A stretch of 64,000 nt of DNA from a virus. Lineage: Duplodnaviria; Caudoviricetes. Numbering within the stretch: position 1 is the stretch's first letter; each line of letters begins with the position of its first letter. This document shows, in pieces, positions 14,401 to 52,922 of the stretch. Below the pieces are notes generated by a model, which ran no database searches, was not told where the DNA came from, and worked only from the letters and a program-made list of their open reading frames with translations. The DNA lies in the IMG/VR virus record IMGVR_UViG_3300021978_000001, positions 96,001 through 160,000 of that record; one strand, written 5' to 3'. A program made the position numbers and the translations under genes.

Positions 14401-14407
14401 CTCTTTT

Positions 14408-14730
14408 CTCCTAAGCCCCGCATGCGCGGGGAACCTGGTTTGTGCTATCTGGCACGGCGGGCCATCCCCGCATACGCGGGGAACACTCTCTCTTGTCGTC
14501 TCAGTCAACGCCAGGTGTGGGGCCATCCCCGCATACGCGGGGAACACTGCGTGTAGAGTGAGCCCCTCTCTTCCCAAACGGGACCATCCCCGCATGCGCG
14601 GGGAATACGCGAATCAAAATCGAGGTCAAGCCCTTCTTGGCGGACCATCCCCGCATGCGCGGGGAACACTGCGCTTCCTTGTCTTTCTCGTCCTTCGAGC
14701 GCGGACCATCCCCGCATGCGCGGGGAACAC
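14408..14730 (-). CRISPR. orphan type I-E-like mini-array: 5 full repeats plus 1 degenerate, four 33-nt spacers and one 23-nt spacer
   Basis: Repeat GTGTTCCCCGCGCATGCGGGGATGGTCC at 14459, 14520, 14581, 14642, 14703 (61-nt period); leader and TTGACA promoter at 14731-14840; no cas genes in window. Confidence 0.95.
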
Positions 14731-16945: not shown

Positions 16946-17385
16946 CACATCTCCGGCAAGCGTCCGATACGGCACGCGTTGAGGGTCAAGACCCCCTGCG
17001 TATCGTTTCGTTGGATATGGAAGTAAAACGCGGTCGCGAGCAAGCCTTCCTCGACCTGCTCGTACTCCATGTCATACATCGACATGGCGCCGTAGGTCAA
17101 GTAACACGCCTCGACCACATCGAAGAACCCTTCGCTTGCCTTGACGATCTCTCCTGTGGGGTCTCCTGAACCGCCGCGCGCTACCGCCACCCAGAGCCAA
17201 TGCGGGCGTTGCAACCCTGGCTTGGGTTCACGCGGCTCTCCTACATGGTCCTCGAAGAAAGCCTGCACGCTGACGCCCTCGAACTCGTCGAGTTCATCGG
17301 GTTCGAGACCTTGTGTAATGGTCGGGTCCAGCTCCACGATCGGGAGCTGTTCGATTCGGAACTGCTTTTTGGGGTCACGGATCAT
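16945..17385 (-). CDS. hypothetical protein
   Basis: GGAG RBS, upstream promoter motif at 17422-17450. Confidence 0.6.
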   Translation of the reverse strand: MIRDPKKQFRIEQLPIVELDPTITQGLEPDELDEFEGVSVQAFFEDHVGEPREPKPGLQRPHWLWVAVARGGSGDPTGEIVKASEGFFDVVEACYLTYGAMSMYDMEYEQVEEGLLATAFYFHIQRNDTQGVLTLNACRIGRLPEM

Positions 17386-17453
17386 GGTCGATCTCCTGTC
17401 GTGTTGTTTCGTCACCACAAGTATCTACCATATTTGACGGGAGGCGTAAAGAC

Positions 17454-18155: not shown

Positions 18156-18202
18156 GGCATCCTCCTTTCGTTATGTGCCACAAAACACGGATCATAAACA
18201 GG

Positions 18203-18937: not shown

Positions 18938-18956
18938 AGAAGGCGGGACGCGTTCG

Positions 18957-19805
18957 TCACCCCTTGTAAAGGCGAAGCCTGCGCGTCAAGGGGTCGAGGT
19001 CTTCTGGATAATGAGGACCGATCGCGAGCGCGGTCACGGTAGGCTCATCGAACACCGTGCGCCCTTCATCCTCGATCAAGGCTACACGCAGCCCTTTCGC
19101 GACCGCTTTCGCATGCAAGTTGCGGAGCGCCTCTTCACTCTTGACGCCCACCACGATCTTGGCATACGAGCCTTCGCGCCATGCGACATCCTCCGCGCGC
19201 ATGTTCATCTGGAGCTGGCCATGCCCCGCGTGCGGTCCTGCGGTGTTCCCGCTCCCCTGGACGGCACCCTGGAGGAACGCTTCGAGAGACGCATGCGCGG
19301 CTTGCGCGGCTGCTTTCCCGGGGGGCATCTCCAGGTCCTTTCGCAAGACGATCACTTGTTTGGGCTCACCTTTGACCTCGCGCGCGGGCTTTGCTTCGGG
19401 CGCGGGGTTACGTCGAGCTTGCGCCATGGCATCAGCAGACACATTTTTCATGCACAGGTGCGAGGTGAGCCCTCCCAGGAGTCTCCCTGCTTCGTTGGTA
19501 TGCGTACACACCGTCCCTACCACCCTGGCGGGCTTGGTCAGGGAAGCGAACTTCTGCCCCTCTACGGGTTCTGTGCAGTCGTTCCACGACCCTTCGAGCG
19601 CGACAAGGTACACCCCCGCGCCCGCCCATGTACCATCGACCATCTTGAGCGCGCCCTTGATGTAAATGAGGTACTGCAAGGCGCTCTCCAACGTGGGCCA
19701 CACCGAACCTCCCACATCTTTATAGAAGGGCGTATGCTTCCATTGCTCGTATTGCGGGAGGTTTCCAATCGTGTAGGCTTGCTTGCCCGGCCATGTGTCT
19801 TCCAT
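18957..19805 (-). CDS. unknown N-terminal domain fused to Pth2-type peptidyl-tRNA hydrolase
   Basis: KQVIVLRKDLEMPPGKAAAQAAHAS...AKIVV...IEDEGRT...TALAIGP. Confidence 0.85.
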   Translation of the reverse strand: MEDTWPGKQAYTIGNLPQYEQWKHTPFYKDVGGSVWPTLESALQYLIYIKGALKMVDGTWAGAGVYLVALEGSWNDCTEPVEGQKFASLTKPARVVGTVCTHTNEAGRLLGGLTSHLCMKNVSADAMAQARRNPAPEAKPAREVKGEPKQVIVLRKDLEMPPGKAAAQAAHASLEAFLQGAVQGSGNTAGPHAGHGQLQMNMRAEDVAWREGSYAKIVVGVKSEEALRNLHAKAVAKGLRVALIEDEGRTVFDEPTVTALAIGPHYPEDLDPLTRRLRLYKG

Positions 19806-19846
19806 TTACTTGTTCTCCTCTATAAAACTCAGACGTTGTGTGCAGT

Positions 19847-20539
19847 TCACGTGCAGGAAGTCCAGGTCCCTCTCTTGACGCGGCGCGCGCGAGATGATGC
19901 CGCGAGATCTCGCAAGACTGTCGAGATCGCGGACCTGGGGTTACTATAGCACGACGCGTAATGAGGCACACGCTCGAACAGCTCCCTGGTCGTGACCTCC
20001 TCGTGGCCCTTCAGTTGGGCCTCGACCCAGGCAAGCAAGAGCTTGTAATGCGTGTGATACTCCTGAGCCCCACTCGGGTACCCCGCGAGAACGTCCCTGT
20101 TCTCATCACACAGCAGGAGCTTCCTGGTGTTTCGATGCAGGTATCTGTCATCGAGGCGCTCCGCTTCGATGTGTGTCGTGAAACCTTCACCATTGAAACT
20201 CATCAGACCTTGCTTGGTCCAGCGACCCCCCTTGTAAGCCTCGTCCCACTTTTTGATGGTCGCTTCGCGCGGTGTCGCGATCGTGGCACCCCAGATCTCA
20301 TCTGCGACGTGGTAGATGTCGAGCTTCCACGCCTGACGTCTCAAGGTTTTATCCGAGCGTCGCTTCATCTCGACCGCCACCACATACTCGGGGCAGTTGC
20401 AGGGACCTGTATGCCCCACGTGGTCGATGAAGATACTCTTCCCAAACATGGCTACCTCGCCATGCACGCACAACCCGCGCGCTCGCAGGTGTGCAATAAC
20501 ATGGGGCGATAGCTCCAACTCTGTTGTCAACTTGGTCAT
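19847..20539 (-). CDS. putative PD-(D/E)XK nuclease-like protein
   Basis: EV...IDHVG...AVEMK pattern; weak. Confidence 0.5.
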   Translation of the reverse strand: MTKLTTELELSPHVIAHLRARGLCVHGEVAMFGKSIFIDHVGHTGPCNCPEYVVAVEMKRRSDKTLRRQAWKLDIYHVADEIWGATIATPREATIKKWDEAYKGGRWTKQGLMSFNGEGFTTHIEAERLDDRYLHRNTRKLLLCDENRDVLAGYPSGAQEYHTHYKLLLAWVEAQLKGHEEVTTRELFERVPHYASCYSNPRSAISTVLRDLAASSRARRVKRGTWTSCT

Positions 20540-20622
20540 GCGCTCTCCTTTCGCGTAAGCCGTTTATACCACATGTTATAAGAGGTGTATAGTGCAGTAC
20601 ACGTTATGTCGCGAGAAAGGAG

Positions 20623-20913
20623 GTGTGCATGTGGCGTACAACGTTGGTTTTGGGAGTCCTGACGTTCTTCTGTGTTGGCGTGATCTGGTGGTGGCTTCCG
20701 ATCAAGGAAGGCTCTGCACCGCAAGAGGAAGAGGTGATCACGTTTAGCCCCGCGCAGCTCGTGCCCAAATACTCCGATGAGTACCTGGAGTATTGCGCGG
20801 ACCCCGCACCGGATGGCGCGCTCATGTCCATGGTCAATGGCACCTGGGTCGAGGGTGATCCCGACTTCTGCATGGGCGAGAAGAGCGAAGCCGAGATCTT
20901 CGGGTACCGCTAA
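20623..20913 (+). CDS. small membrane-anchored protein (rare plus-strand gene)
   Basis: AGGAGG RBS, N-terminal TM helix, divergent from 19847-20539. Confidence 0.65.
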   Translation: MCMWRTTLVLGVLTFFCVGVIWWWLPIKEGSAPQEEEVITFSPAQLVPKYSDEYLEYCADPAPDGALMSMVNGTWVEGDPDFCMGEKSEAEIFGYR

Positions 20914-21375
20914 TCACTCGTCCATAAAGGGGTTACCCAGAACACGGTTAAGGTCTGCTTCCTGTCGCCGTATCATAGTCTTGAGTTCATCCTGGGTGAG
21001 TTGTTCGACCACCTTCGAGTGTAACAACATCAGCACGGCATACAGCCCACACGCCGTTTCCTTCCAATGCGGACATTCAGTCAAGCATCCCTCTGTATAA
21101 GGACCCCGACCGGATGGCACATGATCGAAGCGTACCACAAAAAGGTCGTCTGGACGCTTGATCACGCGGCAGCTATACACCATCGTGTCCGCGAGATCCA
21201 AACTGTCGAGCATGGTCGGAAAGTACCTGCGGCTGCATGGGATACCCCGATGCGCGGGCCAATGCTCATGCCCCCATGCCGCGAGAAAAGCGTGCAGGTT
21301 ATTGACGTAGCGCACCAGGTCTGGGTGCTTCTCCATGGTGAGAAACGCCTGGAAGCTCTCAGACCGGGTTATCAT
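20914..21375 (-). CDS. hypothetical protein
   Basis: ORF track; start inferred. Confidence 0.55.
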   Translation of the reverse strand: MITRSESFQAFLTMEKHPDLVRYVNNLHAFLAAWGHEHWPAHRGIPCSRRYFPTMLDSLDLADTMVYSCRVIKRPDDLFVVRFDHVPSGRGPYTEGCLTECPHWKETACGLYAVLMLLHSKVVEQLTQDELKTMIRRQEADLNRVLGNPFMDE

Positions 21376-22369
21376 CACTGTCCTCCCCGCTCGCGTCTTG
21401 TGCTGTAAGGTTATGCAAGCCCCAGACAGACGATGCCACGACCGCTTCGATGAAGTCTCCCGAGGTGTCCCCAGGTTCTTCCTCTTCTTCCGAGGTGTCC
21501 AACGTGATGCCCATCTCTCGCAGCAGGTGTGCATTCTGACGCAGCAAGTTTATCGCTTGCTCTCGGGTCGCTTCCCTGGCCTCACGCATGCGATCTGGGA
21601 TCACGTAACCCTCGGGGCGCTCTCCATCACTCGCGGGAACTGCTACACCATCACGAATCACAACCCCCGTTGTACTGTAGACCGCAGGGTCGATGTCATC
21701 ACTTGAGTACGTCGTTGGTACAGTCGTTGGCACAGTCCCGAGAGACCCCGCGAAGATCTCACCACAAGGGTTCTGGTCGATGCGTCCGGGGCGGGTGACC
21801 TCCCACCGAGGCCCCTGATCACGTGGACCCCACGCACGCTCATCCTCTGGAAGCTCTGTAGCATTCCTGTCCAGAAAACCATCGCGCATGATGGAAGCAA
21901 GCCAGCGCTGGAATTGGGTATGATTTATGGTAGACGCGTTCGCGTTGGTCTTGAACTCCGCTACCATGGTGGGGGCCGCGTGAACCTCGGAGCGATCATC
22001 GAGCTTCAAACGAGGAGCCTCCCCTTCATTCATGCATAGGTGCAAGAGACGCAGCTCTTCAAGAAGATACGCCCCCACACGTTGCCATGTCGCATGGTTT
22101 CCGAAATAAGTGATGTGGCCGCAATCTCTCCGCGCCACCAGCACAGAGTCGTACATCACCGTCAATACGCGCGCACCTTCGATGCACGCGGGTCTCTCCT
22201 GTGCTTCTCCCATGATGCAAGCACCCAGGGGGTAGATAAGAGGCTGGCCTTCCTCCTGTTCCACAAAGGCCGCCGCTGCCTCGAAGAGATGCATGGTATG
22301 TTGCACTTGAATGGGATGTGCCTGGACATGCGCGAGAGCTTGCCAGGATGCGGAACGTATCAGTGTCAT
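21359..22369 (-). CDS. hypothetical protein
   Basis: 336-aa ORF, ATGA overlap. Confidence 0.65.
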   Translation of the reverse strand: MTLIRSASWQALAHVQAHPIQVQHTMHLFEAAAAFVEQEEGQPLIYPLGACIMGEAQERPACIEGARVLTVMYDSVLVARRDCGHITYFGNHATWQRVGAYLLEELRLLHLCMNEGEAPRLKLDDRSEVHAAPTMVAEFKTNANASTINHTQFQRWLASIMRDGFLDRNATELPEDERAWGPRDQGPRWEVTRPGRIDQNPCGEIFAGSLGTVPTTVPTTYSSDDIDPAVYSTTGVVIRDGVAVPASDGERPEGYVIPDRMREAREATREQAINLLRQNAHLLREMGITLDTSEEEEEPGDTSGDFIEAVVASSVWGLHNLTAQDASGEDSDDNPV

Positions 22370-22887
22370 GCTATCTCCTCACCGTTATCTCGTGTACGCA
22401 AGACCATGGCGGCACGAAACACGGGCTTGTAGTCTCCCTTATTAAACACAGGAGGCTCCTGAGCGCGTGTGGGCGCTTCTGAGCGCTTCGTTTTCGTGAG
22501 CGTGACTCGGAGCTGCGTAGGGCTTAAACGTTCAACAGGGGGGCCACACGGAAACCTGCGGTGGTGTCTCGACAGCTCCGTGAGAAAGTATTGCGCCAAC
22601 TCTTTCCAGTGATACTCGATCCTGCAATAGAACGCGCGGCTTTTCCCGGGAGAAGCATCGAGACCTACAGGCACACCAGCCCTCCACACGATCTTGTGAG
22701 CGTGCTTGAGAAACGAAGGAAGCACCGTCTCGCCCTCTCGTCTCGCCGGATATGTAGGCTCCACACCCTCGGGTAGCTCCACGAACATCATCAAAGCATC
22801 GAACAAGTGCTTGATATGCTTTACATGCTCGGGGTGATTCTCAGCATAGGCCAGGGCAAGCATTTCATCGGAGCGCGTGAGCGTCAT
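22366..22887 (-). CDS. hypothetical protein
   Basis: ATGA overlaps. Confidence 0.65.
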   Translation of the reverse strand: MTLTRSDEMLALAYAENHPEHVKHIKHLFDALMMFVELPEGVEPTYPARREGETVLPSFLKHAHKIVWRAGVPVGLDASPGKSRAFYCRIEYHWKELAQYFLTELSRHHRRFPCGPPVERLSPTQLRVTLTKTKRSEAPTRAQEPPVFNKGDYKPVFRAAMVLRTRDNGEEIA

Positions 22888-23993
22888 TTGGACCCCTTCT
22901 CTTTCATACGCGCGGTCCAGTCCTGATACTTGCGCAGGTTCTTCTGCATGTCTTCGCAGCCTTCGAGCGCCCTGGCGACGATTTGAAGCGTCTCCTCACA
23001 CTTCGCATCGAAATCCTCCGAGGCTTGGATGCGGTATCGAGTTGCCCAGGTGAACGCGTCAGGCCAGTGCAGCATGCAACGCGTCCAACCATCCCAAACC
23101 TGATCACACACTGCAATCGCTTCTGCCTCGGTCTCACGCCGCGCCGCGTTGTTCGCGGTGGTATAGCCCGAAGCGCGCGCGGCGGTGTCGAGATGCAGGA
23201 TCAGATCATATCCCTCCCGCCAGTCCTCACTGCTACGGTACAGGGGGCAGTAATCAGATTCCTCGTAACGAAAAATGTGCTTCCAGAACTGCGGGGCCAC
23301 GTAAGAAAGGATGTCAGGGATCGAGCGGTCCAGGAGAATCACCGTCGGTCCCGGAAACGGCATCCTCGTGGTTTGCTCTTCGAGCGTCGTTTGCATCTTG
23401 AGCAGGGAACGCTCGAACTTGATCAATCCTTCATGCGTCGAAAGCATCTCTCCGATAGGGAACCCGGACTCCACGAGCGCGGTGACCGTCTCCGGGACCA
23501 CGACAGCATGAAAGCCCATATCCTGGATCATCTCGGTAAGGTAAGGGATCAACGTGCTCTTGCCGCTCCCTGGACCCCCCGTCAATGCGATCGTGTACGT
23601 CTGGAACACGTCCTGGCGCCAGCACACGAAATTCGAGAGCTTCTGGTCGAGGTCGAGGCGCACAAGGGGCGTGTCCACATGTGAGACCTCTTCGTAGACT
23701 TCGACGTAAGGCCCACCCTCCTCTTCCCCGACCGCCATGACCCTGAACTCACCGTAACGATTACTCCCGGGATCGTAAGACCCCAGGAGTTTGGGTAAGG
23801 GCGCCTCTCCCCAGGCATAGTCGCTGCCATCTTCCTGGAGGGGCATGTAACGCAAGGTCATCCCGGGTCGCAGCGCCTTCAGTGCTTGCGTGAGGTCATC
23901 TGACAGACGAAAAGGGGCAGGCCACGTGGACTCACGCTCCTGCAAATCAGCAAAGGACACTTCTTTTTGCTCGGGCGTGTCGGACATGTGCAC
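22884..23993 (-). CDS. P-loop NTPase (NadR/Ttd14 AAA_28-like) with extra N-terminal domain
   Basis: IALTGGPGSGKST, VVVPETVT, ILLDRS. Confidence 0.8.
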   Translation of the reverse strand: MHMSDTPEQKEVSFADLQERESTWPAPFRLSDDLTQALKALRPGMTLRYMPLQEDGSDYAWGEAPLPKLLGSYDPGSNRYGEFRVMAVGEEEGGPYVEVYEEVSHVDTPLVRLDLDQKLSNFVCWRQDVFQTYTIALTGGPGSGKSTLIPYLTEMIQDMGFHAVVVPETVTALVESGFPIGEMLSTHEGLIKFERSLLKMQTTLEEQTTRMPFPGPTVILLDRSIPDILSYVAPQFWKHIFRYEESDYCPLYRSSEDWREGYDLILHLDTAARASGYTTANNAARRETEAEAIAVCDQVWDGWTRCMLHWPDAFTWATRYRIQASEDFDAKCEETLQIVARALEGCEDMQKNLRKYQDWTARMKEKGSK

Positions 23994-24038
23994 CTCTTGA
24001 GACTGACACTAAGAATGAATGCGAACCCTGAAGGAAAG

Positions 24039-24110
24039 TGACCGTGGGGGGAATCGAACCCCCAACCATGGCTTTTAGAGAGCCTTGCTCTGCCGTTGAG
24101 CTACACGGTC
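24039..24110 (-). tRNA. amber suppressor tRNA (anticodon CTA)
   Basis: Full cloverleaf GACCGTG/CACGGTC, D-stem GCTC/GAGC, loop CTCTAAA, T-arm GGGGG-TTCGATT-CCCCC. Confidence 0.85.
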
Positions 24111-24213
24111 ATGTGTGATGGAAGGTGTCTTCTAGTGTTTGCCGGACCAGAAGCAAGCGTATAAGCCAAAGCAAAGTACGATTCACCTTCCACCACAAAG
24201 GTGGAGACAGATA

Positions 24214-24241
24214 GGTACATCCCCGCAGGTGCGGGGAGCCT
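24214..24241 (-). CRISPR. solitary, diverged I-E-like repeat
   Basis: AGGCTCCCCGCACCTGCGGGGATGTACC; CCCCGC-N4-GCGGGG hairpin in the same register as the array repeat. Confidence 0.6.
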
Positions 24242-24459
24242 CCAACCTGATTCCTGTCCCGGCATCTCCGGCTTCCCTGGACAGGATGAACGTACCTTAC
24301 CCCAATGTTGGGAGCGTTGTCAAGCTGACCTACGCATTTTACTGTACCAACCCGAGTTTTTTCAGTTGGTGGCCTTGTGTCGCGGCCAACGCGTCTCGTT
24401 CCTCGGGGGTCATGCGCGCCCAAAAGCCTCGACCCTGATCCTTGAACTCGTGCATGGGG

Positions 24460-24936
24460 TCATGCACTTCCTCTCAATGCAATGGCGAGCTTCTCAAGCT
24501 CTTCCTTGTCTATACTGTATCCTCGACCCGTGTACTTGATGAGCGTCTTGAGTGCGCCTACCGGACTCCACACCTCACCTGCTATCACGAGTCGCTTCTC
24601 TCTTCGGTCTCGCACCGCATCGACACACGACGCGACCAGGTTCCCTTCACGGTCCCGGGCCACCTGCATACACCGAAACAACGTCTTCGCGAACCAGGCA
24701 TCGAGTGCCATGGGTGCGATGACATCGACCGCGAGCGCGTTCTCTTTCTGGTAAGTCGCGCGCCAACGTTTGCTGTTGGCGAGCACATACCCTTCATGCT
24801 CCAGGAGTCTCGCGAGGTGATTCAAGGCGGTCTCCGAGGTCGGTAACACGTCAATGTCCCGGGCATCCTCGAAATCCAGATAGCTCCCCACGACCACGCA
24901 CCCCACAGGGAGCACGAACGGTACTGTATTCTCCAT
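24460..24936 (-). CDS. putative nucleotidyltransferase-fold protein
   Basis: VVGS...DID motif near the N-terminus. Confidence 0.55.
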   Translation of the reverse strand: MENTVPFVLPVGCVVVGSYLDFEDARDIDVLPTSETALNHLARLLEHEGYVLANSKRWRATYQKENALAVDVIAPMALDAWFAKTLFRCMQVARDREGNLVASCVDAVRDRREKRLVIAGEVWSPVGALKTLIKYTGRGYSIDKEELEKLAIALRGSA

Positions 24937-24959
24937 CGAGAACCTCTCACTACAAAAAA

Positions 24960-24998
24960 GGGTACCTTACTTGATGTCTCCTGTCAAGTAAGGTACCC
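24960..24998. promoter_or_regulatory. palindromic promoter/operator, second copy
   Basis: 15-bp arms GGGTACCTTACTTGA / TCAAGTAAGGTACCC, 9-bp spacer; TTGACA on the minus strand. Confidence 0.75.
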
Positions 24999-25048
24999 GC
25001 ATCCCCATGATTGCTTTCACAGGGAGTTACATATAGACAGGGTAGCGA

Positions 25049-25693
25049 TCACACACCCACCTCGATCTTCTCGGGCACTTCCGCAGCCTCAGTCTCCGCC
25101 TGGAGCTTCTCCGCCTGAGCCTTTGCGGCTTCGCGCTCACGGCGCGCCTTGTAGCGTGCGTCGCGAGCATCGACGCGCTCGCGATGGATCTTGGGGAACG
25201 TCGCGACGGTCGCCTTGGCGTCCTCGACCCACGCTTCCCAGTCCGCCTCGATGCGCGCCTTCTCCGCCTCCAGGATCTCAAGGCGCTGCTTCCAGAACAC
25301 ATGGTGCGTCCCCGGACCCCAAGGTGAGGGCTTGTAGGCGTCGATGTAGTGCTTGACGCGCGCCATCACGATCCCGAACCCCACCTCATGGGTGATGTCC
25401 TGCCCGGGGTGAGCGTAAGCGATCATATCCGAGAACTTACGACCGCGCAAGAACCCGTAAGCCAGGTACATGTGGCGCAAGCGCTCGCGGATGTTCCCCA
25501 CCTCCTTGAAGGACGCACCACATCCGTAGCGACGCTTGTGCTCGCGCTGGAAGGCTGCCCAGCATGCGATCTCGCTCTGGAAGGCGCGCATGTTCACGAA
25601 GTAGTAGCGACCCTTCAGGGTACACGCTTCTGCGCGCAAGGTCTTGTTGTCGAGGTAGTTCGAGGTTTCGGTCTGTTCGGTTTCTTTCGTCAT
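25049..25693 (-). CDS. hypothetical protein (YLAYGFLRGR motif)
   Basis: 214-aa ORF downstream of the Pth2-like gene. Confidence 0.7.
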   Translation of the reverse strand: MTKETEQTETSNYLDNKTLRAEACTLKGRYYFVNMRAFQSEIACWAAFQREHKRRYGCGASFKEVGNIRERLRHMYLAYGFLRGRKFSDMIAYAHPGQDITHEVGFGIVMARVKHYIDAYKPSPWGPGTHHVFWKQRLEILEAEKARIEADWEAWVEDAKATVATFPKIHRERVDARDARYKARREREAAKAQAEKLQAETEAAEVPEKIEVGV

Positions 25694-25760
25694 GGTATCT
25701 GTATCCTTTGGTGTGTTCTTCACGTTCTCTCTTCACTTCTCCTGTACGCTCGGGTCAGGA

Positions 25761-26123
25761 TCACGAAGGGGGAGGGCGCGAAGACAGCGCCAAGGGCAGC
25801 TCACGTACCAGATCACGCACGACCTCATCACACGGTTCTCCGCAAAGAGGGCGCAAGGCTACAGCCGTCAGCGCTCCCTCATAGAAGGGCTCGTGGAATG
25901 CTTTGTGCGGGATGTCTTCGGTACGGAGCGTTTGGACCGCATCTGCGAGGGTCGCAGGGTCCGCAGCAAGCAACACAATACGATTCGAGATCTCGTGCCA
26001 ACACTGAACATGCTCTGGATAGTCGAGCGTGAACTCGATCGCAGCATGCAGCGCTTGAGAGGCTTGCTGTCCCGGAGACAGGTCGTCCCGGGTGATGACG
26101 TAGAATTTAGCGTTCTACAACAT
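25761..26123 (-). CDS. Pth2-like peptidyl-tRNA hydrolase with in-frame TAG at codon 3
   Basis: AGGAG-N7-ATG TTG TAG AAC GCT AAA TTC TAC GTC ATC ACC CGG GAC GAC CTG = ML*NAKFYVITRDDLSPGQQASQALHAAIEF, in frame with track ORF 25761-25976. Confidence 0.75.
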
Positions 26124-26192
26124 GTCAAAGCTCCTGTGTGGGTAAGAGCAACACACCATGCGTTGCTTCATGTGAAAGACTATGCACACAAA

Positions 26193-26218
26193 AAAAGGAG
26201 CCGTCAAGCTCCTTTTTA
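26193..26218. terminator. intrinsic terminator overlapping a TTGACG promoter
   Basis: AAAAAGGAGC-cgtcaa-GCTCCTTTTT. Confidence 0.7.
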
Positions 26219-26236
26219 CGTTCGAGGTGTTTTTTA

Positions 26237-26515
26237 TCACCTCATGTTCGAGATGTCCACAACCTTGCCGCGAGGTTCAGGGTCATCACCAGGGGTCAAG
26301 CGCTCGACCATGAAGCCCGCCATCGCACCACCACCGAGGCGAATCTCATCTCCTCGATTCTTGAGGTTCTTGAAGTCCTCTCGGGTCATGTCCTCATTGG
26401 CGTCGATCAATTCATCGAGTCCGCCGCGCCAGACCATCTCCATCTGGACGTTGCCCCAGTTGTCCTCGAAGATGTCGAAAACTTGCACTTCAAAGTTCGT
26501 CGTTGCGTCCGTCAT
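26237..26515 (-). CDS. hypothetical protein
   Basis: Own promoter motif at 26570-26600. Confidence 0.6.
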   Translation of the reverse strand: MTDATTNFEVQVFDIFEDNWGNVQMEMVWRGGLDELIDANEDMTREDFKNLKNRGDEIRLGGGAMAGFMVERLTPGDDPEPRGKVVDISNMR

Positions 26516-26600
26516 GGTATCCCTCTCTTATCGTGATCATTCAGTGTTGGTGTCTTGTCCGTACACTTCCTGATACCACAAGGGTTAGGGCGCGTAAAAG

Positions 26601-27308
26601 TCAGTTCGATAAAAACTGATCTTTTTGTCGAACGATCTCGCGCGCGATATGCACCGCGAACGCCACCGGCTTGATCACCTTGCACCCATAACGGGGCGAT
26701 TCGGAGAGCATCTCAGGGTCGTACTCATTGAGGCACTCATAGAACTTGTCCTCGCTGTCGATCGCGTGCCACAGCTCGAACCAATCAGGCTCGGAAAGCT
26801 CCTCCTCTTCGTCCAACTCCTCGCCCTCTTCGAGATCATCGAGCAGTTCCTTGTGTGCGGCAACCTCGTGATCCCACCAATCCAGGATGTCATGCGCGGC
26901 GAGCTGTCCGTCATATGCATAGGGAGAGCGCACGGGGTTGTTCCCACAGTGATACTTCTCTTCGAGGTAGCGACCCCATGCATGCTGGTCGATGAAGCGC
27001 GCGGCATCCCAGACATCCGTGCCGCGATACCGGAAACGCATGCAGCCAAACGACCAGGTATCGACGTAGATGTAGCCGTTCTTGATGTAGAACTCGCTTC
27101 CGGTCGAGAGAGATCCCTGTGAGAGCGTGATCACGGTCCCGTATGGGCCTTCCTTGACCTTGGTGATGGGGTACTCGCCTTGAAAGGTCGGGAGCACTTC
27201 AGCGTCCGCGTGCGAGCGCAGGCGGGTGAGGTATTCATTCTCGGACATACATAACTCCTGAACGCAGATGAAACGTAAAAACGGCGTGTCGAACAAGGGG
27301 TGGGTCAT
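26601..27308 (-). CDS. hypothetical protein
   Basis: 235-aa ORF with GGAGG RBS. Confidence 0.65.
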   Translation of the reverse strand: MTHPLFDTPFLRFICVQELCMSENEYLTRLRSHADAEVLPTFQGEYPITKVKEGPYGTVITLSQGSLSTGSEFYIKNGYIYVDTWSFGCMRFRYRGTDVWDAARFIDQHAWGRYLEEKYHCGNNPVRSPYAYDGQLAAHDILDWWDHEVAAHKELLDDLEEGEELDEEEELSEPDWFELWHAIDSEDKFYECLNEYDPEMLSESPRYGCKVIKPVAFAVHIAREIVRQKDQFLSN

Positions 27309-27374
27309 GGATAAAGCCTCCAGGAATTTCTGCCTGGCTTCGCCTTACACGCAGAGTGGCTACGTGTAAGGTAT

Positions 27375-27485
27375 AGGAGGTTGCACGGGATTGAACCGTG
27401 CTATCGCTCATGTCAGCCCGAAGGCACCACGCGCGAATTATCCGAGAACCATAAACCCGGCATTTCGACACGCCGTTTGGTCTCC
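27375..27485 (-). ncRNA. tRNA-like structured RNA of unknown class
   Basis: Ends in T-arm CACGG-TTCAATC-CCGTG then ACCTCC; several hairpins including GCC-TTCG-GGC; no standard cloverleaf. Confidence 0.4.
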
Positions 27486-27514
27486 TGAATGTCGATGTGG
27501 TTGCATGCGAGGCG

Positions 27515-27542
27515 GGACCATCCCCTCATACGAGGGGAACAT
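27515..27542 (-). CRISPR. solitary I-E-like repeat with compensatory stem change
   Basis: ATGTTCCCCTCGTATGAGGGGATGGTCC (CCCCTC/GAGGGG stem). Confidence 0.8.
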
Positions 27543-27578
27543 ATTTCTCGCACCATTCGCAATGGAGACCGTTCTCAG

Positions 27579-27650
27579 TGGAGCTTGAGAGACTCGAACT
27601 CTCAATTCAACCTTGCAAAAGTCGTGTGATCCCAGTTTCACCAAAGCCCC
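27579..27650 (-). tRNA. tRNA-Ala(TGC)
   Basis: Cloverleaf, G3:U70. Confidence 0.9.
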
Positions 27651-27654
27651 AAAA

Positions 27655-27737
27655 GAAGTGAGGGTGGTCAAGGTGGTGCATATGGGGGTCCTTGTTTGCT
27701 ATAAGATAACCCATGTGCGGCATACCACCCCCACTTC
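27655..27737 (-). ncRNA. hairpin cassette copy 1, near-empty
   Basis: GGTATGCCGCACATGGGTTATC-about 15 nt-ACCCCCATATGCACCACCTTG within an outer stem. Confidence 0.6.
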
Positions 27738-27762
27738 TGACATCTTCCTGGGAAGAAGATAG

Positions 27763-27835
27763 TGGAGCCAGGGGGTCTCGAACCCCCGACCTCGACGCTG
27801 CCAGCGTCGCGCTCTCCCAACTGAGCTATGGCCCC
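27763..27835 (-). tRNA. tRNA-Ala(GGC)
   Basis: Canonical cloverleaf. Confidence 0.95.
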
Positions 27836-27855
27836 GTTCGTACTATGAACGCCCC

Positions 27856-28218
27856 TCAACCGAGGGTCATTTCCCCATCACAGAGTTCGTCGATCAGCGC
27901 ATCGAGTTCCAGGGGGACTTTGCCCTCATAGAACTCGATGCGCCTTTCCTGACCGACAGCATCTCTCCACACCACCTGGTATCTCATACCATCACAGATA
28001 GAGAAACCAGGTGGAATCGGAATCTTGGGGTCGATAGGTGGAGGAAGGGTGAGAGTTTCGAGGCCCTCACCCTGGTCCAATATACCTTCCAACCGTTCAA
28101 GCATCTGGAGAGATGCAGGAGAGAGGTTCGTCTTGAGCGAAGAAAAGGTCTGCTTCAAGAGAGGAAACAACCCGCCTTCGCGGATGTACTGCACTTGAAG
28201 ATGCTTGTCTTTGCTCAT
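27856..28218 (-). CDS. hypothetical protein
   Basis: ORF between RNA genes. Confidence 0.5.
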   Translation of the reverse strand: MSKDKHLQVQYIREGGLFPLLKQTFSSLKTNLSPASLQMLERLEGILDQGEGLETLTLPPPIDPKIPIPPGFSICDGMRYQVVWRDAVGQERRIEFYEGKVPLELDALIDELCDGEMTLG

Positions 28219-28240
28219 CAGTTGAACCTCGCTATGTAAA

Positions 28241-28379
28241 TCTGAGCCGAACAAGGTGTGGATCTGGGGGTTTAGCGTGCTACCATTACACTACCCTGGG
28301 GGTTAACCCAGGGCCGGGACTCGAACCCGGACCGCCTGATTTGCATTCAGATAACCCATCTCCGGCATCTCGGCTCAGA
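28241..28379 (-). tRNA. circularly permuted tRNA-Cys(GCA) (28275-28350) inside hairpin cassette
   Basis: Order: anticodon arm, T arm, CCCTGGG, TTAACC, CCCAGGG, D arm; U73; joining restores C27-G43. Confidence 0.8.
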
Positions 28380-28407
28380 ACTGTGCTCTCTCTTGTTACG
28401 AGAGAAG

Positions 28408-28736
28408 ATCAAAGGTGTGTCCACCAAGGCTGCACCCGAGTAAGGGTATATAGGTGGCATCGTTGTGTGGCCGCCGTCTACGCGCCAACTCGTGGCCTAT
28501 CGCCGTGGAGAAGGTTCGCGCACCGGGCTGGCGGGCGCCCTCATGATCGAGATTGCTCTCGACCTTAGCCTTGAGCCTTCGTGGGGAAGGGACTCTCAAG
28601 GGAGGGTGAGCTTGGCCTGACAGGTGTAACCTCGATAGGAGACTACCCCGTTTCGCTAGACCCCTCACGGGGATTCACTACCTTCGGACCGTTATTGGGA
28701 TAACCCACCTACGGCAGCTCAGGCACAGCTCTTGAT
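28408..28736 (-). ncRNA. hairpin cassette enclosing an about 249-nt structured RNA (28451-28699)
   Basis: GCTGCCGTAGGTGGGTTATC 5' arm, TATACCC 3' arm; GNRA hairpins inside. Confidence 0.6.
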
Positions 28737-28825
28737 GAACACACCTTTGGAGACCTCGGAGCTTCCGAGCGCGCACCACCCCGCTAAAGATAAAGCGGCT
28801 CGGTGCTCCGAGATCCCAAAGAAAA

Positions 28826-28891
28826 GTCACGGTCAAAGTGATGTATATGGAATATTCTATCTCCGATAATCCATACACGGCATACCGTAAC
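28826..28891 (-). ncRNA. hairpin cassette, near-empty copy
   Basis: GTTACGGT-ATGCCG-TGTATGGATTATC-short loop-TATTCCATATACA-TCACTTTG-ACCGTGAC. Confidence 0.55.
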
Positions 28892-28892
28892 A

Positions 28893-28973
28893 AGCGAGCG
28901 ACGGGACTCGAACCCGCATGCGTTAAAGCGACAGCTTGGAAGGCTGTTGTCCGACCAGTTGGACCTCACTCGC
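28893..28973 (-). tRNA. tRNA-Gly(TCC) with unusually long variable region
   Basis: ACAGC-CTTCCAA-GCTGT, U73, 13-nt variable region. Confidence 0.8.
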
Positions 28974-29172
28974 GCATACTCGTCTCTCCGAGCTGTCACC
29001 CGGTCTGTCCCAGGTTCGTCATGCGTCACACTCTCGGGCCGCATCGCCGCACGAGGGGATCTTCAGATCGCGTGACCCCTCGTGAATCACATGCGACCTC
29101 CGGCGTCTGGTCTCGCCGGGCCACGGGATTGTGCACGCGCATCTGCGCGGATGGAATCCTCGGGCGTCAGGT

Positions 29173-29315
29173 ATTGCGTGGTCAAACGGAGCGTAACAGG
29201 AGTGTTGACTCGTGCTCTGCCGGTTGAGCTAGAAGTGCCACTCGTCATGACACAACCCGGGACTCGAACCCGGAACCACAAGTTTGGATAACCCTATCAC
29301 TGCATACCACGCAAT
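29173..29315 (-). tRNA. degenerate circularly permuted tRNA (Gly/His-like) in hairpin cassette
   Basis: T arm precedes D arm; acceptor has 2 mismatches; anticodon loop would be non-standard. Confidence 0.55.
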
Positions 29316-29437
29316 CATGGTCCTTCTCCCTAAGATCTCCCTGAGAAGAAGGTTTGGGTTGGATGAACCTCTCACTGACACCTTGATCGACCGAAATTGA
29401 CGACAACGACAGACAAGAGGATGAGAGGTTCATCCAG

Positions 29438-29512
29438 CGACTCCTACGGGATTTGAACCCGTGGTCTCCTGCGTGACAGGCAGGCGTCCACTCCAGACTG
29501 GACCGAGGAGCC
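29438..29512 (-). tRNA. tRNA-Asp(GTC)
   Basis: Canonical cloverleaf, G73. Confidence 0.93.
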
Positions 29513-29589
29513 GAAAGTGCTCTATCCGAGCGCTTTTGTATGATACCATGGAAACCTTATCCTGGAAACCAAGGTAGCGTCAAGTACCA

Positions 29590-29661
29590 ATCCGGGAGCA
29601 GGGCTCGAACCTGCATTGCGAGGATCAAAACCTCGTGTCCTGCCAATTAGACGATCCCGGA
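29590..29661 (-). tRNA. tRNA-Gln(TTG)
   Basis: Canonical cloverleaf. Confidence 0.93.
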
Positions 29662-29720
29662 GTAATCGTGGCCCAAGCACTGCTTCGTGCAGTGAACATC
29701 CCGAGTGCTTGAGCCACGAT

Positions 29721-29924
29721 TCACGCATGTTCGGTGCCCGTGGCTTCCTCGATAAACGAGGAAATCACATGACGTTGAACCACCGCGTGGGGTGTCGCTT
29801 GTGACTGTGACCACACCTCGATAGTGCTCATCGAAACCTCGAAACGATCGGCAAGCTCTCTGCTGCTATGCAATTCTCGCAAGTAATGCAAGGCGAACAG
29901 GAAGAGTTTATGCGTCTCATTCAT
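29721..29924 (-). CDS. small HTH protein
   Basis: SSRELADRFEVSMSTIEVW helix-turn-helix pattern. Confidence 0.6.
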   Translation of the reverse strand: MNETHKLFLFALHYLRELHSSRELADRFEVSMSTIEVWSQSQATPHAVVQRHVISSFIEEATGTEHA

Positions 29925-30007
29925 CGAAACCTCGATCAGTGTCGTGTCGAGTGCAGGGTCCGAAGTCAGCGAACACCGCTTCTCCCTGCACGAGCAGGGA
30001 AGATAGA

Positions 30008-30152
30008 GTACACCGGATAAGGGATGAGAGTGGATGTTTTTGGCGCTTTACCACTAAGCTACACAGCCGTAAACGATGGCTGTGGGTTGGAATCGAACCA
30101 ACCGATCTCCCCGTTAAGAGCGGATAACCCACGGCTCTTCAGCCCGATGTAC
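30008..30152 (-). tRNA. circularly permuted tRNA-Lys(CTT) (30042-30123) inside hairpin cassette
   Basis: CCG-CTCTTAA-CGGGG, T arm, CACAGCC-A-TCGTTTAC-GGCTGTG, D arm, GCC; joining gives a perfect 5-bp anticodon stem. Confidence 0.85.
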
Positions 30153-30154
30153 AG

Positions 30155-30227
30155 TACCACAGGTGGGGGTCGAACCCACAACATCCTGGTTTTGAACCAA
30201 GCGCCTCTTCCATTGGGCCACTGTGGC
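30155..30227 (-). tRNA. tRNA-Leu(CAA), short variable loop
   Basis: CTTGG-TTCAAAA-CCAGG; 5-nt variable region. Confidence 0.75.
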
Positions 30228-30421
30228 AGGCGGAGTTGCATACGTCAAGGGTTTTCTGCTGGGCAGGATCGCCACCGTCGTGGATGGATCTGCCTGACCT
30301 TTACACCTATGCAACAACCCTGGAGTTCCCATCTCTCCGGTCTCTACGCGTCGTCACGCACCCTGTAGGAGCTACCCCACAAGATACAGCCTCGTGACGT
30401 GTGAGGCTACGCGCTGGGAAA

Positions 30422-30494
30422 TCGACATGCCAGGACTCGAACCTGGACCACCTCTTTCGTAGAGAGGCACTCTATCCAATTAAGTTACACGTCG
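30422..30494 (-). tRNA. tRNA-Arg(ACG)
   Basis: Canonical cloverleaf. Confidence 0.92.
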
Positions 30495-30609
30495 AGAATG
30501 CCTCCCAGTGTACGGTGTCGAGCACACCGAGAGGACTTTTCACTGTGGTCGTCGAGCGATCTCAGTGAGAGCGTTATGCCACACCTTACGAGAAGGTGTC
30601 AAGACAATT

Positions 30610-30825
30610 TCATTTTTTCTTGAGGTCAGCGTCGGTGAGGCTCTTTTTCTGCCAAGCCGCCTCTTCCTCTTTAGCGCATCGCTTGCTGTACCGCCACGCG
30701 ATGGCATGGTCAATACGATCAAGCTCCTCACGCTCCTCGACGGTCAAGGTGCCTTGTGCTTCGAGCGCACGTTGTTGAGCTTTGAGCCTTTCGATGTGTT
30801 TCCGATCTGCATCTTCATCAGTCAT
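30610..30825 (-). CDS. hypothetical protein
   Basis: GAGG RBS, helical composition. Confidence 0.5.
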   Translation of the reverse strand: MTDEDADRKHIERLKAQQRALEAQGTLTVEEREELDRIDHAIAWRYSKRCAKEEEAAWQKKSLTDADLKKK

Positions 30826-30944
30826 GCTTACCTCGTCTGAAAAGTACCCTGCCGTAAGTTCGCTTCTCATGCGCCCTCGTCTTAAAGGCGCACAGAATAC
30901 CCCTCCCCAGAGGTAAAGTTTAGAATGATGAACCCGACAGGGTA

Positions 30945-31017
30945 TAGCGGGTGAGGGAATCGAACCCCCAACTGTAGGTCATGAGCCTACCGAGATATAC
31001 CGTTTCTCCAACCCGCA
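30945..31017 (-). tRNA. tRNA-Met(CAT), 1:72 mismatch (initiator-like)
   Basis: GTAGG-CTCATGA-CCTAC. Confidence 0.88.
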
Positions 31018-31051
31018 ACAAATGAGTGTGCTGTTCCTGTGCCCCGGCGCC

Positions 31052-31195
31052 GGACCATCCCCGCATACGCGGGGAACACGCTCCACAACACACTCGGGCG
31101 CCTGGGTATACCCACGACGCAGATCCGCTTGACGGTGGAGCGACAGGCGGAAGTGGTACGGCAAGGCGAACCATCCCCGCGCACGCGGGGAACAT
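31052..31195 (-). CRISPR. two I-E-like repeats (31052-31079, 31168-31195) separated by 88 nt, between tRNA-Ile and tRNA-Met
   Basis: Near-identical to the array repeat. Confidence 0.85.
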
Positions 31196-31235
31196 GGACC
31201 TCACGGATGCATCGACGCGAGATCTCACCATACCA

Positions 31236-31309
31236 TAGCTGGACGCGGACTCGAACCGCGAACCTCAGCCTTATCAAGACTGCGCTCTAACCTGTTGAGC
31301 TATCCAGCT
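31236..31309 (-). tRNA. tRNA-Ile(GAT)
   Basis: Canonical cloverleaf. Confidence 0.93.
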
Positions 31310-31313
31310 TCAA

Positions 31314-31387
31314 GTGCTTGCCCCTGGACTCGCACCAGGATCTCTCGCGTGATGGCGAGCAGGTTACATACGGCTACCATGGATACC
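31314..31387 (-). pseudogene. degenerate tRNA-like sequence
   Basis: CCTGG-TGCGAGT-CCAGG T-arm, 6-nt anticodon loop, poor acceptor pairing. Confidence 0.45.
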
Positions 31388-31406
31388 TTGACCCCAGACA
31401 AGCAAG

Positions 31407-31555
31407 TGTACATGAATCGAACAAGGTAGTGAGCAAGGGGTTTTTACGAGTGCTACCGTTACACCACATGTCCGGGTGGACATGCTGGGACTCGAACCCA
31501 GACCACGCGCTCCGCTGGCGATAACCCTTATCTCGGTCATCTCGATTCATGTACA
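31407..31555 (-). tRNA. circularly permuted tRNA-Arg(GCG) (31447-31520) inside hairpin cassette
   Basis: CGC-CAGCGGA-GCGCG, T arm, CATGTCC-ACCC-GGACATG, D arm, TCG; joining gives a perfect CGCGC/GCGCG stem. Confidence 0.8.
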
Positions 31556-31556
31556 G

Positions 31557-31630
31557 TAGGGCTGACAGGAGTCGAACCTGCGACCATCTCCGTGTAAGGA
31601 AGCTGCTCTGACCAACTGAGCTACAGCCCT
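31557..31630 (-). tRNA. tRNA-Val(TAC)
   Basis: Canonical cloverleaf. Confidence 0.9.
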
Positions 31631-31666
31631 GTGATGTGCTTGCTCGGATAAGGGAAGTGGCGAGCG

Positions 31667-31757
31667 GCGCCATCCCCGCATGCGCGGGGAACACTAAATC
31701 TGAACAAACACAAGCAGAGCGCCCGAGATGAACCATCCCAGCATATGCAGGGAAATC
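31667..31757 (-). CRISPR. repeat-spacer-repeat unit (31667-31694 and degenerate 31730-31757, 35-nt spacer) upstream of tRNA-Val
   Basis: GTGTTCCCCGCGCATGCGGGGATGGCGC plus a degenerate copy. Confidence 0.75.
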
Positions 31758-31839
31758 AACGTATGCCTTTCGCGCTCTGTGGTGAAAGGTAGCTGGGTAC
31801 CGTTGACTCTCCCGTAGGAGCGGCCCCTGCTTGCCTCTC

Positions 31840-31960
31840 ACGCTTTGTTATGCGTGCGTTCCTATTCACTTGTCAAAGATCTTGAGTCGTTGGCGTTGTG
31901 CGTTGCACCGTCGCCGTGACATCAACCGTTATGCCTTGTTCAAATCATGCTGTCAAGCAT
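31840..31960 (-). promoter_or_regulatory. tandem TTGACA...CATAAC promoters heading the tRNA/ncRNA cluster
   Basis: TTGACA-N17-CATAAC near 31928-31956 and TTGACA-N18-CATAAC near 31846-31875. Confidence 0.6.
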
Positions 31961-32009
31961 TTTCTTCCTGAACCGGGCAAAAAGTTCGATCGGAGTGCAT
32001 CCGATCCAG

Positions 32010-32086
32010 AGCAGCCAGTGGGAATCGAACCCACAACCTCCTCGGGACCATCACCACAGATGTGGTGAAAATTGAGCCATGGCTGC
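32010..32086 (-). ncRNA. tRNA-CRISPR repeat chimera
   Basis: Acceptor GCAGCCA/TGGCTGC and intact T arm; the D/anticodon region is a 28-nt repeat variant at 32045-32072. Confidence 0.75.
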
Positions 32087-32165
32087 TTGCTCGTGAAGGG
32101 CGTTGCCGTTCACGAGAGACACAACTAGGTGACGTGGAGAGTTATTCCACACCACCACGCGCGTG

Positions 32166-32771
32166 TCAAACGTTCTGTGGGAATTGAGCCAGGAGATCCT
32201 GATCCTGACCTGCAACACGCTGAACAGGGATGGCCGTAAACGTGGACCGCAGGCTCGCCGCGTAAGGCGTCTCGACCAGGAATTGGTATGCAGGCGCACA
32301 CTTGATCGACTTCTGATCGCCCACACGTTGGCATTCGATCACGATGTCCTTTCCGACGCGGTTGGTGACCGAGGCGACACGCTCGACCTTCCCGACCTGC
32401 AACCCCGCACCCATCACGCGATCATCCGTCACGACCTTGCGCGCGATCTTGGTGACGTAGAACAACCCTTCAGCGTCGAGGAAGAGCGCCGCCATGCGGT
32501 CCTCGAAAGCGCTCTTACAGGAACTCTTGCGGTGATGGGAAAACGCACATTCGAGCTTGCGCAAACCATACACCACACCAAAGCCATCACCTTGGTGCGC
32601 GTACTTGACGAGGATGGCGCACGCTTCCTGAATAGCCTTGCGGGTCTCTCCCGCCGAAGAGGAGACCCACGCGTCTACTTGCGTGGCAAGGGTATGTGCC
32701 TGGAGAAAGTAGGAGAGCGCGGTTTGGGGAACGATGATCGCGGACATGATAGACACCTCGTGGTCAGTCAA
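32166..32771 (-). CDS. hypothetical protein
   Basis: Promoter motif at 32808-32836. Confidence 0.6.
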   Translation of the reverse strand: MTDHEVSIMSAIIVPQTALSYFLQAHTLATQVDAWVSSSAGETRKAIQEACAILVKYAHQGDGFGVVYGLRKLECAFSHHRKSSCKSAFEDRMAALFLDAEGLFYVTKIARKVVTDDRVMGAGLQVGKVERVASVTNRVGKDIVIECQRVGDQKSIKCAPAYQFLVETPYAASLRSTFTAIPVQRVAGQDQDLLAQFPQNV

Positions 32772-52805: not shown

Positions 52806-52896
52806 AGAGCCGGGTGGGACTCGAACCCACGACATACCGCTTAAAAGGCGGATAGGACCATCCCCGCATGTGCGAGGAACAATAGCCCCACCCGGC
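52806..52896 (-). ncRNA. tRNA-Lys(TTT)-CRISPR repeat chimera
   Basis: Repeat TTGTTCCTCGCACATGCGGGGATGGTCC (52855-52882) in place of the D arm, followed by CCGC-CTTTTAA-GCGG, T arm and acceptor 3' strand. Confidence 0.75.
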
Positions 52897-52922
52897 AGCG
52901 TGCCTCACAAAGAGGCACCACC

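Follow-up and report, generated by a model that had tools for sequence, protein, structure and literature searches.

A phage tRNA-Gly gene with its core replaced by a single type I-E CRISPR repeat unit

Viral CRISPR repeats and the phage examined here

Solitary CRISPR repeats and mini-arrays are already known from viruses, and their origin is mostly guesswork. Medvedeva et al. reportedly described, in 2019, virus-borne mini-CRISPR arrays in conflicts between related viruses, and in the same year Varble et al. are said to have reported, in a Nat Microbiol paper listed among the references of PMC9071438, recombination between CRISPR spacers and phage protospacers, in that case at staphylococcal type III and type II loci and in connection with CRISPR-locus transduction. 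tRNAs have also been combined with guides: engineered polycistronic tRNA-gRNA arrays and the Cas6-independent crRNAs obtained from 't-elements' in Haloferax are man-made and keep the tRNA outside the guide, and in tRNA-flanked guide designs the guide ends are set via RNase P and tRNase Z. CRISPR-Cas systems without Cas1 and Cas2 have been found in huge phages (Al-Shayeb et al., 2020; PMC7162821), and viral solitary repeat units have been described as RNA anti-CRISPRs, or Racrs (Camara-Wilpert et al., 2023; PMC10651486); a review (PMC6546412) contains the term 'tRNA-like'.

The locus that we describe here, c1, resembles a Racr in being a lone phage CRISPR repeat outside arrays, with a hairpin that a Cas6-family protein is predicted to bind, and differs from it in lying inside a tRNA frame, in fitting the phage's own Cas6e and Cascade and in having a PAM-like junction. 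With viral mini-array and huge-phage systems the phage shares effector genes, many short arrays and the absence of an adaptation module and, like the guides of viral mini-arrays, the putative guide of c1 matches a near relative and not the host. Unlike those guides, its 'spacer' would be the phage's own former gene sequence, still in place and next to one repeat only, and its 3' end would come from tRNA features or a terminator. Engineered tRNA-guides and c1 have in common a tRNA-like structure that defines (putatively, in c1) the guide ends; in c1, however, the guide position is the 3' half of the tRNA itself and Cas6e would make the 5' end, and we regard the engineered tRNA-gRNA arrays and the Haloferax t-element crRNAs as functional analogues only.

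The window, the 64,000-nucleotide stretch of DNA that was analysed, belongs to a complete 437,490-bp virus record with terminal repeats from a hydrothermal-vent metagenome, and relatives of the phage occur in marine and seawater runs. The phage encodes the type I-E effectors Cas3, Cas7e, Cas6e, Cas5e and a Cse1-Cse2 fusion, and we found neither Cas1 nor Cas2 anywhere in the 437-kb genome. Its cas locus (genome positions 12501-32500) reads Cas3, Cas7e, array, Cas6e, array, Cas5e, Cse1-Cse2 fusion, array, the Cas7e being unusually long (496 aa). The genome holds 61 repeats, in about 12 mini-arrays and many solitary units. On the minus strand the repeat of the arrays, 28 nt long and separated by spacers of 33 nt, reads GTGTTCCCCGCGCATGCGGGGATGGTCC, a consensus drawn from the window array listed here and ~60 other genome repeats on the strand of c1; repeats of this type are widespread in bacterial arrays, across many bacterial phyla.

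14459..14730, minus strand: reference CRISPR mini-array of the window, five repeats, 33-nt spacers

tRNA calls in the phage number 33 and fall mostly within the window, and solitary repeats lie amid these tRNA genes, on the tRNA strand, with upper coordinates 24241, 27542, 31079, 31195, 31694, 31757 and 52882. An earlier reading of c1, made without database searches (hereafter the sequence-only reading), had assumed a host Cas6e; since the phage encodes one, at genome positions 17075-17713 on the minus strand, the relevant Cas6e is the phage's own and not only a host's.

A tRNA-Gly(GCC) gene converted by one repeat unit

c1 occupies positions 32086 to 32010 of the window on the minus strand, where a CRISPR-repeat-like 28-mer lies between the retained acceptor stem and T arm of a tRNA. 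Its parts and immediate surroundings are as follows, L018 being a close relative of the phage.

32010..32086, minus strand: c1, chimeric RNA gene derived from tRNA-Gly(GCC), with acceptor stem, repeat hairpin and T arm (from the orthologous site in L018)
32080..32086, minus strand: acceptor 5' strand GCAGCCA, same as in the intact sister tRNA (alignment)
32079..32073, minus strand: UG and D-stem 5' strand GCUC-A, same as in the intact sister tRNA (alignment)
32045..32072, minus strand: 28-nt unit like a type I-E repeat (covariance model, 30.2 bits, E 5e-7)
32067..32062 pairing with 32057..32052, minus strand: repeat stem, with loop at 32061..32058 (pair statistics)
32051..32045, minus strand: handle AUGGUCC
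between 32052 and 32051, minus strand: putative Cas6e cut site (by analogy with known Cas6e cleavage)
32010..32044, minus strand: tail, the tRNA-Gly(GCC) 3' part, in the putative spacer position (identity with L018 over 34 nt)
32034..32018, minus strand: T arm GUGGG-UUCGAUU-CCCAC
32017..32011, minus strand: acceptor 3' strand UGGCUGC, followed by discriminator U at 32010
32141..32169, minus strand: promoter-like TTGACA-N17-AATAAC, ~55 nt upstream of c1 (consensus scan; kept in 7/7 relatives)
31978..32006, minus strand: intrinsic-terminator-like hairpin and U run directly 3' of c1 (consensus scan)

The 28-nt unit carries TTC, and of the array repeat it has retained the stem (6 bp), the loop (4 nt) and the tail ATGGTCC, 19 of 28 positions being the same; both this count and the sequence of c1 had been given correctly by the sequence-only reading. 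Two of its stem pairs have changed on both sides: pair 7-20, from C-G to A-U, which is unique among the 61 genome repeats, and pair 10-17, from G-C to A-U, which 11 of the 61 show as well. We trained a covariance model on 45 distinct repeats of the phage genome, c1 excluded; it aligned with c1 over its full length on the array strand at 30.2 bits (E 5e-7), compared with 42-50 bits for true repeats and 13 bits for the best non-repeat noise in the window, and the copies of the c1 repeat in the relatives L022 and L019 scored 34.8 and 23.8 bits respectively. Across the repeat family (60 distinct repeats from the phage and its relatives), 99.7% of stem cells are paired and three of the six pairs show both-side changes, the observed covariation score being reached by none of 500 shuffles. 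The resemblance of c1 to the repeat is well past chance, and its insert is a structurally intact member of the phage repeat family. No further repeat occurs within 300 nt on either side, the nearest being at 31757, so that c1 does not form an array. Its presence in independent assemblies from at least three studies shows, moreover, that c1 is not an assembly artefact.

The ORF that immediately precedes c1 led us, through its protein cluster at 90% identity, to close relatives. At the c1 site L018 has, between flanks nearly identical to those in the window, a canonical 72-nt tRNA-Gly(GCC) that shares with c1 the acceptor stem, the D-stem 5' strand, the anticodon-stem 3' strand CGAGG, the variable loop and the T arm. 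The 22 nt of this tRNA-Gly(GCC) that extend from the D loop to the anticodon loop have been swapped for a 27-nt repeat unit in the window, in L019-L021 and L023 (all from one study) and in L022 (from another). At the syntenic site of L010 and L014, which are more distantly related (~55% protein identity), tRNA-Gly is followed by tRNA-Trp and tRNA-Val, and the intact tRNA is therefore the ancestral state. c1 is a converted phage tRNA-Gly(GCC) gene, its core replaced by one type I-E repeat unit, and with an intact allele at the same site in L018 the earlier idea of a designed mimic gives way to that of a recent conversion.

The tail of c1 runs through the anticodon-stem 3' strand CGAGG, the variable loop AGGUU, the T arm, the acceptor 3' strand and the discriminator, and is identical at 34 of 34 positions to the intact tRNA-Gly(GCC) of L018, in which AAC directly precedes it; this identity and the PAM-like signature at 13 comparable junctions (see below) lend indirect support to the suggestion, made in the sequence-only reading, of a guide directed at the tRNA genes of rival elements. 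Repeat position 3, the loop, handle position 23 and the sequence right behind the handle vary among the three c1 haplotypes. No change is seen in the 12 bases of the stem or at any of the 44 end positions that derive from the tRNA, which gives, in small numbers, 0/44 variable sites in the tRNA-derived ends versus 4/33 in the insert and junction. The L019 group has U changed to G at handle position 23, a position invariant in all 61 repeats of the window phage genome. The anatomy proposed in the sequence-only reading (a repeat set between tRNA ends at the D/anticodon position, stem changes that compensate each other, and ~35 nt of tail) was right.

The Rfam tRNA model (RF00005) aligned with the acceptor stem and T arm of c1 only, skipping 36 nt (30.0 bits; cut-off 29). 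Like a tRNA, c1 has a 7-bp acceptor stem and a T arm with its UUCGAUU T-loop, both identical to those of the L018 tRNA-Gly(GCC), together with a discriminator base and a tRNA promoter and terminator context; unlike a tRNA, it has neither a D arm nor an anticodon arm with a 7-nt loop, as judged from the Rfam alignment and the comparison with L018, and therefore cannot decode. The 'tRNA-Gln(ctg)' called here by ARAGORN, with the anticodon at position 28, is an artefact, this anticodon sitting in the 4-nt repeat loop, and a weak Rfam match to Plastid-ycf2 on the plus strand at c1 corresponds to the reverse complement of the tRNA-like ends and is spurious.

The genome as a whole has four motifs of the form TTGACA-N17/18-NATAAC, every one of them in the tRNA cluster and on its minus strand (30602, 31876, 31956 and 32169), and they likely represent a promoter type dedicated to small RNA genes. 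The terminator-like hairpin after c1 has a 25-nt insertion in its loop in some relatives. Because c1 keeps the tRNA promoter, terminator, acceptor stem and T arm, its RNA should be made and have its ends trimmed in tRNA-like fashion. Elsewhere in the cluster, the phage tRNA-Lys(CUU) (window 54966-55040) has 22 nt of variable loop and T arm identical to those of c1/tRNA-Gly(GCC), as well as the same D-arm start, GCTCAATT, a likeness that points to paralogy or gene conversion among cluster tRNAs.

Conversions in the tRNA cluster and their junctions

Other genes of the cluster have been converted as well. tRNA-Gly(UCC) is converted in L019 and L022, with different repeat variants and junctions, and intact in the window and L018; tRNA-Trp(CCA) is converted in L022 (with the T arm kept) and in the window, and intact in L018 and L019; tRNA-Lys(UUU) is converted in the window (c2) and intact in the relatives L144 and L145; and a tRNA-like element between tRNA-Ile and tRNA-Met is converted in the window and repeat-free in L018, L019 and L022. 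Comparison of the alleles shows these conversions to be independent and lineage-specific. The corresponding features of the window, with two further solitary repeats, are listed below.

31667..31757, minus strand: two-repeat mini-array in place of tRNA-Trp(CCA) (intact in L018 and L019)
31168..31195, minus strand: solitary repeat replacing most of the tRNA-like element in the tRNA-Ile/tRNA-Met interval
31052..31079, minus strand: solitary repeat 33 nt upstream of tRNA-Met
27515..27542, minus strand: solitary repeat 35 nt downstream of tRNA-Ala(UGC)
52806..52897, minus strand: c2, second chimera, tRNA-Lys(UUU) derivative (intact in L144 and L145)

The Trp mini-array of the window consists of a decayed repeat (31757..31730), a 35-nt 'spacer' and a second repeat (31694..31667), the 'spacer' being the tRNA-Trp 3' end plus downstream DNA; this chimera has a stem mismatch, has had its T arm deleted and is decaying. 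In c2, a repeat at 52882..52855 stands in place of the acceptor 5' strand and D arm, and what remains of tRNA-Lys(UUU) is its anticodon arm, T arm and 3' end. Repeat-free alleles of the element at 31168..31195 read ...TTCAAAT, followed by the retained CCTTGCCGTACC. Predicted folds of the three c1 haplotypes and of the Gly(UCC) and Trp chimeras have the 7-bp acceptor stem, the repeat hairpin and the T arm, whereas c2, unlike these, prefers a long outer stem.

The L018/L144 lineage has a cluster without solitary repeats, save one conserved weak unit near a suppressor tRNA. This tRNA, of the amber-suppressor type (CUA; 24038-24110, minus strand), lies ~100 nt downstream of a diverged repeat-like hairpin (24214-24241) that is kept in all relatives, including the otherwise repeat-free L018. 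Solitary repeat-like hairpins also occur in the tRNA clusters of distant relatives with ~55% protein identity (L014, 14013-14040; L015, 4355-4373), and the association of solitary repeats with tRNA clusters is thus old in the clade. Five viral contigs contain the phage's repeat too, without tRNAs in its vicinity.

Several other non-canonical tRNA-like elements are found on the minus strand (28242-28375, 29210-29281, 30045-30102 and 31420-31528, and also at 27400); they comprise T-arm hairpins outside called tRNAs, have a GGGTTATC motif in common and match the Rfam YrlA (Y RNA-like) model at 24-32 bits, which is sub-threshold. Between the Trp locus and tRNA-Val an extra ORF of ~600 nt is present in L019 (11106-11673) and L022 (2900-3450) and absent in the window and L018. 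For annotation, the cluster counsels caution, as a CRISPR chimera can underlie a weak tRNA call in a phage tRNA cluster.

We compared repeat-bearing with repeat-free alleles in a census of 13 conversion events. At all 13 junctions the repeat is complete at its 3' edge, native sequence resuming 0 or 1 nt beyond the 28-mer; the 5' edges are ragged, carry 0-21 nt of foreign sequence and go with deletions of variable extent. In the Trp chimera of L022 the foreign sequence before the repeat amounts to 21 nt. The three bases that precede the retained sequence in the repeat-free alleles are AAC for c1, AAC for c2, AAG twice and AAT twice, the remaining triplets being GAG (twice), TAG, GAT, AGC (twice) and AGT. 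Thus AA occupies positions -3/-2 in 6/13 junctions, versus a background of 4.5% (P 1.1e-5), and A occupies position -2 in 10/13 (P 3e-5). The base at -1 is G in five, C in five, T in three and A in none, the same preference as is seen in the first base of the phage's 33-nt spacers (G20, C16, T8, A1). St-Cascade, of type I-E, has an AAN PAM with other dinucleotides tolerated (PMC10281945), and GAG and TAG are interfering PAMs in the E. coli I-E system (PMC6568314). The AA excess at the junctions agrees with a type I-E AAN PAM, the putative PAM of this system and, by the system's own rules, the native sequence beside each solitary repeat has the look of an earlier protospacer in which the repeat has taken the place of the PAM side. 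Counting against the PAM reading, AAC is not among the top I-E PAMs.

How the chimera may have arisen and what its RNA may do

The reading that we favour, with a probability of roughly 0.5, is that c1 arose by protospacer-to-spacer conversion and now encodes an RNA predicted to be Cas6e-cleavable, tRNA-scaffolded and crRNA-like. As to origin, c1 is probably a CRISPR escape scar. A host or sister-phage array with a spacer against the tRNA-Gly 3' half would have recombined with the phage via the 33-bp spacer homology, with an exact crossover on one side and illegitimate joining on the other; this would have deleted the PAM, so that the phage escaped targeting, and left a solitary repeat in the tRNA gene. 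Non-coding tRNA DNA would tolerate such insertions, which would explain the build-up of scars in the tRNA cluster. Array-phage joining of the kind reportedly seen by Varble et al., exact at the spacer/protospacer, fits the exact 3' and ragged 5' edges of the chimeras; unlike in that case, what we see is a small scar fixed in phage genomes, with no donor array found. The sequence-only reading of c1 as a crRNA mimic or guide stands as regards anatomy; an escape or recombination scar, which it did not consider, fits the junctions at least equally well.

A donor array, or a spacer matching the tRNA cluster, was sought among phage spacers, bacterial loci and viral contigs and was not found. Of the phage's 45 array spacers, compared with the phage genome itself and with every relative retrieved, none but the Trp-derived 'spacer' gave a match, and 120 bacterial loci with this repeat gave tRNA-to-tRNA similarity to the phage only, and neither a host spacer nor a host assignment. 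Scans of viral contigs with the 20-nt foreign flank of the Trp chimera, and for the repeat joined to the tRNA-Gly tail, revealed no donor array, and the CACCAC/GTGGTG stem of c1 was absent from all arrays sampled. Nor did viral contigs yield related loci with the neighbouring ORF and Cas7e as queries, or any hit in a pattern scan for a c1-like handle plus T arm; the same pattern in metagenome contigs picked out two AT-rich tRNAs, which are unrelated.

Under the favoured reading, the c1 hairpin would be bound by the phage's own Cas6e and cut 3' of the stem, between 32052 and 32051, giving a product with the 8-nt handle AUGGUCCC and 34 nt of the tRNA 3' half. This RNA would resemble a crRNA but lack a second repeat, and its match would be the intact sister allele and not the locus it comes from: the post-handle sequence agrees with the L018 allele at 34/34 positions beside AAC, taken as the PAM on the strength of the junctions. 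c1 has no 3' repeat hairpin, only a terminator hairpin, unrelated to the repeat, lying downstream and, without a second repeat, the 3' end must be made by other RNases. We infer recombination with an array, Cas6e cleavage and Cascade loading. That the RNA is used as a guide against sister phages is a real possibility though short of an even chance. The T arm and acceptor helix hold the tail fast in the predicted fold, a possible obstacle to Cascade loading. Tails of sister chimeras range over 27-41 nt, versus 32-33 expected, and this range, the handle mutation of the L019 group and the decaying Trp chimera argue against strict guide selection.

A stronger version of the guide reading, which we consider improbable, is that a phage without Cas1 and Cas2 creates guides by putting repeats inside its own genes, c1 being a sister-killing one-repeat crRNA. 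In that event the tRNA frame would give promoter, stability and 3'-end maturation and Cas6e the 5' handle, and Cascade-Cas3 would hit sisters with the intact tRNA allele, the converted allele being immune with its PAM gone. Such an RNA would combine tRNA and crRNA in a natural hybrid and act as a poison-antidote weapon with allele specificity.

We also think it unlikely that c1 is a decoy of the Racr type, in which the tRNA frame would give a single repeat hairpin a stable and highly expressed support, with an irrelevant tail, and the hairpin would absorb Cas6e or seed a dead-end Cascade of the type I-E system of a host or rival phage. The phage runs its own I-E system with the same repeat family, so that a decoy would poison this system too, and a pure decoy gives no reason to expect the PAM-like signature of the 13 junctions. 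Racrs are nevertheless an established class, although the paper describing them has no mention of tRNA (PMC10651486), and a decoy would accord with a solitary viral repeat that comes, by consensus scans, with a promoter-like site and a terminator-like hairpin of its own, with compensatory changes that preserve the stem and with the occurrence of this repeat type in so many bacterial arrays. Tail lengths of 27-41 nt likewise suit an unimportant tail, and all chimeras have a foldable scaffold of acceptor stem and T arm, c2 preferring its long outer stem.

Neutral wreckage, in which illegitimate recombination in a dispensable, repeat-rich tRNA cluster would have left functionless, decaying hybrids, is similarly doubtful. 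Repeats and tRNAs have short motifs in common (GTTC, TGGTC), and microhomologies are possible (GTTC at the 5' junction of c2; GGGATGG versus GGGCCGG), but wreckage leaves unexplained the exact 3' edges and the excess of AAN/GAG in the ancestral alleles (P ~1e-5), as well as a base at -1 that mirrors the first spacer base of real arrays. The lineage-specific positions and fast turnover of solitary repeats, the decay of the window Trp chimera and the mutated c1 handle of the L019 group all point towards it, and internal replacement would keep both tRNA ends automatically; the double compensatory change that keeps the c1 stem, and the contrast, in small numbers, of 0/44 with 4/33 variable sites between tRNA ends and insert plus junction, do not.

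Last, that c1 is an unusual working tRNA, such as a decoder without D or anticodon arm or a primer-like tRNA, is highly improbable, and a decoding role is effectively refuted: its Rfam score is just over the threshold (30.0 versus 29) and it retains an intact acceptor stem, T arm and discriminator U, but c1 has neither anticodon arm nor D arm, the anticodon proposed by ARAGORN falls inside the 4-nt repeat loop, and the L018 orthologue identifies the 22 nt that were lost.

This phage clade provides before and after alleles for at least 13 events, with exact junctions at PAM-like sites and repeated tRNA loss. It now becomes testable whether phages escape from CRISPR by capturing a repeat of the attacking array, whether such scars turn into guides or decoys for phage-borne Cascade, and whether a tRNA frame can stand in for the second repeat in crRNA maturation. 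The chimeras seem to document, and may even serve in, a CRISPR conflict centred on phage tRNA genes.

Among isolate phages, Megablast gave no match to the c1 region, and one phage array gave only repeat-to-repeat matches, in Streptomyces phages, and no real target beside which to read a PAM. These phages (Eklok, AxeJC, Ignacio and others, ~37 kb) carry two adjacent, unannotated I-E-like repeat units near the genome end, which may be mini-arrays or solitary repeats.
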